Of a stretch of 10,870 bases of DNA, positions 640 to 1,441 are shown in pieces; position 1 is the first letter of the stretch, and each line of letters opens with the position of its first letter. The translations under genes and the position numbers were made by a program. Origin of the DNA: a virus (taxonomy: Duplodnaviria > Heunggongvirae > Uroviricota > Caudoviricetes); IMG/VR virus record IMGVR_UViG_2695420687_000005, positions 1 through 10,870 of that record; one strand, 5' to 3'. A model generated the notes under the pieces. That model had not been told where the DNA came from, searched no databases, and saw only the letters and a list, made by a program, of their open reading frames with translations.

Positions 640-1441
640 ATGATTACTCCTGCACAGCAACACTGGCAGAACGTGATGGCACAGCGCGCAGGCCGGGCGA
701 ATGAAGGCGTGGACCACGCCGCGCGTACCGCGCATGAAGAGGTGCTGTATCGTCTGCGTCTGGCACAGGCCCGGCTTAAGGGCGTACAGGCCAGAAGCGC
801 GAAAGCCGCCATCAAAAAAGAGTTGTTGCCGGACTTTTCCGGCTTGGATTGAGGGAACGCTGGAGGCTGACGGCGGGCAGCAGGATGAAGTGATTGCCAC
901 GCTGATGGTGTGGGCGATTGACTGCGGCGATCTTCCGCTTGCGCTGCGTATTGGTGCGTATGTGGTCCGTCACAACCTCATCATGCCGGATAACTTTGGC
1001 CGTACTGCTGCCACGGTACTGACCGAAGAAATCTGCAACCCGGTATTGACGCAGGCCGGGACGGATGCCGACGCGGATTTGTCCACCTTTATCGAACCAC
1101 TGGACACACTTTGGGAAATTGTCGCCAACCAGGATATGCCGGACGAAGTGCGCGCCAAATTATGCAAGGCGTGCGCCTTTGCCCGCCGTGGCCTGAGCGA
1201 TGCGGACAGCATGGCCTCATCACTGAAGCTGCTGCGCGAAGCGATGCACCTGAACCCGAACGCAGGTGTGAAACGCGAGATTGCAACCCTTTCCCGCGCC
1301 CTGAAAAAAGCTGATTCCGCAGCCGCACCAGAAGATGCCAGCACACCGCAGACGCAGGACGAAAGCAGCAAAAGTAAAAAGACAACGCGGAAGCCTGCAA
1401 CACGAAAAACCACCGCGACGCAGAAGGCGAAGCGCGGTTAA
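640..1441 (+). pseudogene. M: Terminase small (endonuclease) subunit, P2 gpM family, interrupted by a +1 frameshift at a T4 run (835-838)
   Basis: ORF 640-852 encodes the gpM-like N-terminus (MITPAQQHW...KKELLPDF). The homology continues in the +1 frame (PAWIEGTLEADGG...MPDEVRAKL...) to the stop at 1439-1441. Removing one T from the tttt run at 835-838 restores a single frame reading ELLPDFPAWIEG. The ATG at 701 opens the second frame with 43 non-homologous residues. Confidence 0.8.

Follow-up and report, generated by a model that had tools for sequence, protein, structure and literature searches.

A probably real, clone-specific single-base frameshift in the gpM small terminase gene of a P88-like Escherichia coli prophage

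The late-gene region and its gpM gene

The window—that is, the whole stretch of 10,870 nucleotides analysed here, which almost certainly is contig CDRK01000058.1 of assembly GCA_000936005.1—is the late-gene region of a P88-like E. coli prophage (Xuanwuvirus, P2-family, Peduoviridae), and its features are listed in Table 1. The genes follow one another in the order N'–M–L–X–holin–M15 endolysin, as they do in phage P88 and in annotated E. coli prophages, and the gpM gene lies between the major capsid gene N and the head-completion gene L, which position is that of the P2 gpM-type terminase. For region 600–1460, 16 phage records matched at 96–98% identity, and there were matches in 1,066 complete E. 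coli genome records as well, with 99.8% as the highest identity; and in every listed match, those in all 16 close phage genomes included, the region measured 860 bases against the 861 of the window.

Escherichia phage P88 (Xuanwuvirus) is the closest sequenced phage, with a gpM DNA 97.3% identical to that of the window, although the gene is intact in P88 and split in the window. The gpM copies of the prophages in STEC strains reach a DNA identity to the window gpM of at most 99.8%, and the gpM of P2 (PF05944, phrog_74), for its part, is 38% identical at the protein level. In these P2-family relatives the native start and stop of gpM are the same as in the window, but in the intact gene they enclose one frame of 266 aa, which frame the window has split at codon 69. 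Whereas a single ORF of about 230–290 aa is expected for the gpM family, the window offers one of 70 aa plus, at best, another of 183 aa; its gene is a gpM pseudogene or null allele and no intact member of the family. NCBIfam contained no family for any of the gpM pieces or for the intact protein, and a PDB sequence search with gpM retrieved no solved relative.

Table 1. Features of the window, with their coordinates and the basis of each assignment.
Feature	Position	Strand	Basis
gpN, the P2-family major capsid gene: 3' end, truncated where the contig begins	1..594	+	Translation; collinear with the annotated 'phage major capsid protein, P2 family' in annotated prophage L001 and with P88
Shine-Dalgarno-like GGAGAG, 5 nt upstream of the gpM ATG at 640	629..634	+	Read from the sequence
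Truncated gpM product, 70 aa	640..852	+	PHROG matches; identical product called on three contigs
Inverted repeat GCCGG-ACTTTT-CCGGC, kept in intact genes, ending one base before the inserted T	828..843	+	Sequence
Lesion TT, a single T in every intact relative	844..845	+	Alignments
Rest of gpM (intact codons 70–266), +1 frame, native stop at 1439–1441	846..1441	+	Comparison with the intact protein; PF05944 100.6 bits
Possible restart ORF from GTG 890, residues 84–266 (183 aa)	890..1441	+	Gene callers; PF05944 profile positions 50–130; phrog_5997 E 9e-68
Long G+C-rich hairpin followed by T6 (1523–1528), terminator-like, between gpM and gpL	1458..1528	+	Folding, sequence
gpL head-completion gene, intact, 164 aa	1543..2037	+	PF05926; equal length in L001 and P88
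Scaffold join (GenBank NCN, window ACA); from left to right, a fragment of prophage lysB and one of a chromosomal yjgL-like gene	3142..3144		GenBank comparison
Scaffold join (GenBank NNCN, window AACA); from left to right, a fragment of chromosomal tabA and one of tail-fibre gene H	4602..4605		GenBank comparison

The hairpin between gpM and gpL, with a folding energy of −48 kcal/mol and a z of −5.0, was equalled in stability by none of 200 shuffled sequences, and looks like a terminator or an attenuator within the late operon. It directly precedes the Shine-Dalgarno sequence of gpL, and its long stem and loop were missed by a simple terminator scan.

The frame break and its exact position

An initial annotation of this DNA had proposed that a single-base frameshift divided gpM into an N-terminal part (640–852) and a remainder extending to 1441 in a frame offset by +1, which proposal the ORFs, the PHROG and PF05944 matches, and the one-gap alignments all bear out. 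In translation, the ORF beginning at the ATG (640–852, 70 aa) and ORF 701–1441 are indeed offset by +1. The former matches the terminase-small-subunit families phrog_9273 (E 1.3e-30) and phrog_74 (E 1.2e-17) over residues 1–67/68; the latter matches PF05944 at 100.6 bits (cut-off 29.4), phrog_5997 (E 9e-68), and phrog_74 (E 2.7e-49), the intact gpM of a relative scoring 126.1 bits for PF05944. To judge by these matches, both halves are those of a P2-type small terminase and the break in the frame is real. The alignments of the DNA relatives, moreover, extend over the entire gpM and contain, with identities of up to 99.8%, one single gap that is one base long, and an alignment of the whole gene with only that gap is far beyond chance. 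We also observed that phrog_9273, phrog_18948, and phrog_5997 span only the N-terminal (about 64–133 aa) or only the C-terminal (162 aa) portion of gpM, an indication that phage databases contain such calls of a split or truncated gpM in sufficient number to have given rise to PHROG families of their own.

To locate the lesion, window positions 780–900 were aligned with the gene as it stands intact in E. coli 2011C-4251 and in phage P88, nine alleles being compared as confirmation. The TTTT run at 835–838, to which the initial annotation had attributed the lesion, is unchanged in all three sequences; the surplus base belongs to the TT at 844–845, where the window reads GGCTTGG and the relatives read GGCTGG. 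The assignment to the interval 830–850 had accordingly been right, and the proposed site lay within 10 bases of the actual one, but the run was the wrong one. On these alignments a single T has been duplicated at 844–845, with a +1 frameshift at codon 69; the lesion does not fall within a run of four or more identical bases, the change being from T to TT. The removal of one T from 835–838 also restores a frame (...DFPAWIEG...), which solution we rejected since the relatives keep the TTTT and are without the T at 844/845. The repaired peptide given in the initial annotation, ELLPDFPAWIEG, has two residues wrong: in the intact orthologue the repaired site is ELLPDFSGWIEG and a longer stretch around the break is ...KKELLPDFSGWIEGTLE....

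Counted from the ATG at 640, codons 66–68 of the window are TTT TCC GGC (F S G), codon 69 is TTG for TGG, and GAT and the TGA at 850–852 then follow, so that the window product comprises 68 native residues plus Leu-Asp; from WIEGTLE onwards, the downstream ORF matches the intact protein exactly. The inserted T sits directly 3' of a small inverted repeat that has the T4 run as its loop (Table 1), and the idea that this hairpin promoted the slip is speculation. In the intact protein PF05944 spans residues 36–169, and the break at codon 69 is therefore inside the domain.

Like the prfB-type programmed +1 frameshift and the programmed −1 frameshift of the P2 E/E' tail chaperone, the split gene has two ORFs that overlap in neighbouring frames, and a U-rich, slippery-looking site precedes the 0-frame stop. 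The split gpM might conceivably still work, either through a +1 slippage of tRNA-Phe on U_UUU_C (835–839) or as two separate pieces, one of 70 aa and the other the 183-aa restart product. With UUU (835–837) UCC in the 0 frame, a +1 slip would re-pair the Phe-tRNA on UUU (836–838), and the downstream frame would be entered before the stop is reached. The product of such slippage would be a full-length gpM with Pro-Ala in place of Ser67-Gly68—exactly the FPAWIEG of the initial annotation—and that exchange could be tolerated, residues 67–68 being variable (SG in P88-like gpM, EG in a Klebsiella phage, LP in P2, AD in a Burkholderia phage). As to the two-piece alternative, the GTG at 890 is preceded at a distance of 4 nt by AGGA (882–885).

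Several observations nevertheless argue against either form of residual function. U_UUU_C would permit the re-pairing, but the run is also present in intact genes, and we could see by eye no Shine-Dalgarno-like element and no stop in the A site; with neither a rare or stop A-site codon nor a prfB-like upstream Shine-Dalgarno to be seen at UUU_UCC, any slippage would probably occur at background level. The break, furthermore, lies within PF05944 and at no domain border, and residues 69–83 are missing from both pieces. The arrangement, finally, is not kept among relatives: not one of 1,007 complete E. coli genome records with the gene carries the additional T, all 16 phage copies are one base shorter, and, when 428 phage records were found by tblastn with the intact gpM, at least 80% of the protein was covered by one single place in 366 of them, that of P2 (38%) included. 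Because of these three results, the two-ORF layout is, as far as the sequences tell, not conserved among orthologues and a programmed event is not supported, which answers in the negative the check for such a layout suggested in the initial annotation. In contrast to prfB and E/E', then, the gpM layout is found in no orthologue, shows no stimulator, and belongs to a family that is single-frame throughout; that the split gene still works we consider exceedingly improbable.

Distribution of the additional T among assemblies and genomes

The exact 70-aa product was called on three contigs: the window's own, CCBU01000028.1 (GCA_000940615.1), and contig 25 of the Logan assembly of run ERR738819 (ERR738819_25). 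The 802-nt gpM allele with the extra T was identical across the three assemblies, with zero differences over the 3.1 kb that they have in common. The nearest intact gpM allele is one substitution plus the T away; and, relative to the nearest intact prophage that we found (L020, GCA_012082805.1), some 9.4 kb contained 10 substitutions and one indel, which indel was the extra T.

Among complete genomes, a 71-mer over the site was matched in the 1,007 E. coli records mentioned above (1,116 places), none of the matches reaching 99% identity, none being identical, and none having the extra T; the extra-T allele was likewise found in none of 5,426 complete E. coli genomes. An exact 33-mer specific for the frameshift had no match in the GTDB species representatives or in metagenome contigs, and a literature search on the run and assembly accessions for the independence of the isolates retrieved nothing. 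The three assemblies may be of one clone, ERR738819 being a possible read set behind one of the GenBank assemblies, so the truly independent read sets may number two, and even those two are assumed from the distinct accessions.

Such a distribution bears on whether the T is an error of sequencing or assembly, in which instance the true genome would read GGCTGG, with an intact gpM, and the extra T would have been carried into the consensus. No complete E. coli record having the gene, no GTDB representative, and no metagenome contig shows the T, which is in keeping with an error, as are the draft nature of the source assemblies, with their N-marked joins, and the possibility that only two read sets, or a single clone sequenced on one platform, lie behind the three assemblies; where gpM is split in further public read-set assemblies, moreover, the calls resemble homopolymer miscalls. 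The insertion, however, is next to a single T and in no run; two deposited assemblies share the exact same T with a Logan assembly built with different software; and the contigs having it exhibit no further indel over the 9.4 kb compared with the nearest intact prophage and no further split genes, whereas the error-prone contigs L007 and L011 carry several of these. Since the deposited and re-assembled data agree, the site is not a homopolymer, and the sequence is otherwise free of indels, a real mutation in one clone is favoured: we would estimate at nearly four in five the probability that the extra T constitutes a real, recent, clone-specific null mutation of gpM in an otherwise intact P88-like prophage, and consider an error of sequencing or assembly to be rather improbable. 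Both causes had been offered in the initial annotation. The inactivating mutation gains from the occurrence of the T in two GenBank assemblies and one read set and from its being the only indel among 11 differences, and the homopolymer error loses ground in that a T became TT where there was no run.

The 183-aa C-terminal product was called on four further Logan contigs as well, which contigs have different one-base lesions. In three of them, from runs of different projects (SRR18681726, ERR10497621, and SRR30896563; contigs L008, L011, and L012) and on a common allele background, one G is lost from the GGG at 853–855, 8 nt downstream of the lesion at 844–845; in the fourth (ERR499308, contig L007) one G is lost from the GGG at 778–780, 65 nt upstream of that lesion. 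Several other genes are split in L007—the large terminase and the capsid among them—and in L011, several gene lengths in L008 are unlike those of the relatives, and L012 has no other anomaly. The allele with the G deletion at 853–855 was present in none of 1,052 complete-genome records. We considered these four contigs as candidates for orthologues with a conserved two-ORF layout and rejected them on account of their different deletions, the split genes in L007 and L011, and the absence of the G-deletion allele from complete genomes; they are probably read errors or rare lineages. Because the G-deletion calls, too, are missing from the complete genomes, recurrent split gpM calls can stem from read error.

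The public assemblies hence contain three distinct one-base indels in this part of the gene: +T at 844, −G at 853–855, and −G at 778–780. A combined reading of the above would be that the prophage is throttled, with background slippage producing a gpM in which Ser-Gly has become Pro-Ala, and that the stretch from about 780 to 855 is a recurrent frameshift target in E. coli P2-like prophages, which conjunction we regard as very improbable. If the segment 780–855 were truly such a target, host selection against packaging-competent prophages or against helpers of P4-like satellites could be behind it.

State of the prophage and consequence for packaging

GenBank record CDRK01000058.1 has N at positions 3142, 3144, 4602, 4603, and 4605, at all of which the window shows A, the two sequences otherwise matching base for base. 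The window is a scaffold of three pieces, and its joins are not sequenced junctions. The segment between those joins (3142–4601; 1,460 bp) is 100% identical to a yjgL-like/tabA segment of the chromosome of E. coli SCPM-O-B-7615 and holds two truncated minus-strand genes, the yjgL-like one represented by its 5' part and tabA by its 3' part; intact prophages hold at the same site 4,358 bp, with lysB, lysC, R, S, V, W, J, I, and the 5' part of H. Since Ns occupy both joins, the apparent 4.4-kb deletion in the window is untrustworthy. A 502-aa ORF on the minus strand (2843–4351) is a chimera over the left join.

The gpM frameshift could alternatively be one of many lesions in a grossly defective remnant, in which 4.36 kb had truly been replaced by a 1.46-kb copy of the yjgL-like/tabA locus. 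Window positions 1–3141 and 4601–10870 are collinear with intact prophages, the 4,358 bp being swapped for 1,460 bp identical to the SCPM-O-B-7615 locus; the left join occurs at the identical base in a second assembly (L004); and a duplicated segment of 1.46 kb would itself break contigs exactly at both of its ends. The Ns at both joins in GenBank, by contrast, are those of scaffold joins without read-through. The second assembly, for its part, has an N at the same left join and more N-marked joins beyond, and it leaves the fragment rightwards into the chromosome instead of the tail-fibre gene; and the Logan assembly of ERR738819, which is 100% identical to both prophage pieces, runs through 3141 into an intact lysB and on to H. 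A real replacement appears doubtful to us on this evidence, though the 1.46-kb insert may be either a mis-scaffold or a genuine duplication-replacement; the question concerns the context of the lesion, and either answer is compatible with the gpM frameshift as the best explanation. The 4.4-kb gap and the chromosomal insert were rejected as evidence of decay in view of the Ns at both joins and the intact path in ERR738819. With N-marked joins rendered as A, the presence of a chromosomal piece inside the prophage and the missing baseplate genes bear no interpretation without the reads.

In ERR738819 the prophage is distributed over two contigs that abut. Of these, contig 25 shows 100% identity to window positions 1–3141 and then continues with intact lysB, R, S, V, W, J, and I into H; contig 11 shows 100% identity to positions 4792–10870 and, past the tape measure, tube, sheath, D, and ogr, reaches genes of the chromosome. 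From the portal gene to ogr, all the called genes except gpM—those of the portal, large terminase, scaffold, capsid, lysis, baseplate, tail fibre, tape measure, sheath, tube, D, and ogr—are of the lengths found in intact relatives, the early region (integrase, repressor, replication) not being recovered. Because every other gene called on those two contigs is of full length, the lesion points to a recent first hit rather than to advanced decay. The decaying prophage invoked in the initial annotation is correspondingly weakened, with the 4.4-kb loss seen in the window falling exactly on the N-marked joins.

As for the likely effect on the phage, the duplication of the T shifts the frame at codon 69 of 266, inside PF05944, with translation terminating two codons later. 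The 70-aa product is without about three quarters of gpM, and any product restarted at GTG 890 would lack residues 1–83. Both gpM and gpP are needed for the cleavage of cos in P2. A loss of gpM function in the prophage is what we infer from these considerations. Because P2-type DNA packaging needs both gpM and gpP (PMC7552001), the prophage would then, by extension from P2 genetics, be unable to package DNA, to yield infective particles, or to help P4-like satellites. With the other late genes intact, the frameshift would represent a first inactivating hit and not late-stage decay.

The lesion has in common with the frameshift pseudogenes of resident prophages that a single indel affects an essential morphogenesis gene in one clone, and it differs from ordinary prophage decay in being the only lesion seen in the roughly 23 kb of the ERR738819 copy, where decay has thus hardly started. 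What we describe is, in all, a well-known phage gene turned into an ordinary pseudogene by a single-base frameshift that is probably real and clone-specific. In annotation, gpM should be labelled a frameshifted pseudogene with its lesion at 844–845, and the prophage, though complete-looking, as probably packaging-deficient; if the mutation is real, the first disabling hit on the prophage has only just occurred, an event that is routine among E. coli genomes. In one of the comparator prophages, that of E. coli 89-3156, the gene for tail protein I (6906–7435 in L017) is annotated as 'frameshifted', a similar lesion of a single gene.

Three minor observations pertain to the right-hand part of the window. 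The tail-fibre gene contains an internal direct repeat (4608–5038), of which the copies at 4608–4906 and 4740–5038 are 84% identical and offset by 132 nt, and Logan contig 25 of ERR738819 stops inside that repeat region, at window position 4811. Between tail-fibre gene H and the tail-fibre assembly gene lies a gene for a macro-domain protein (5996–6865, 289 aa; PF01661, E 5e-19), which may be a cargo or anti-defence gene and whose exact protein is encoded at the same position on at least 24 public contigs. From the tail-fibre assembly gene to gpU, finally, the window has only about 70 nt (7465–7536), and at that spot relatives such as 2011C-4251 and 89-3156 carry, on the opposite strand, a gene for a serine O-acetyltransferase, which constitutes a difference in cargo genes.
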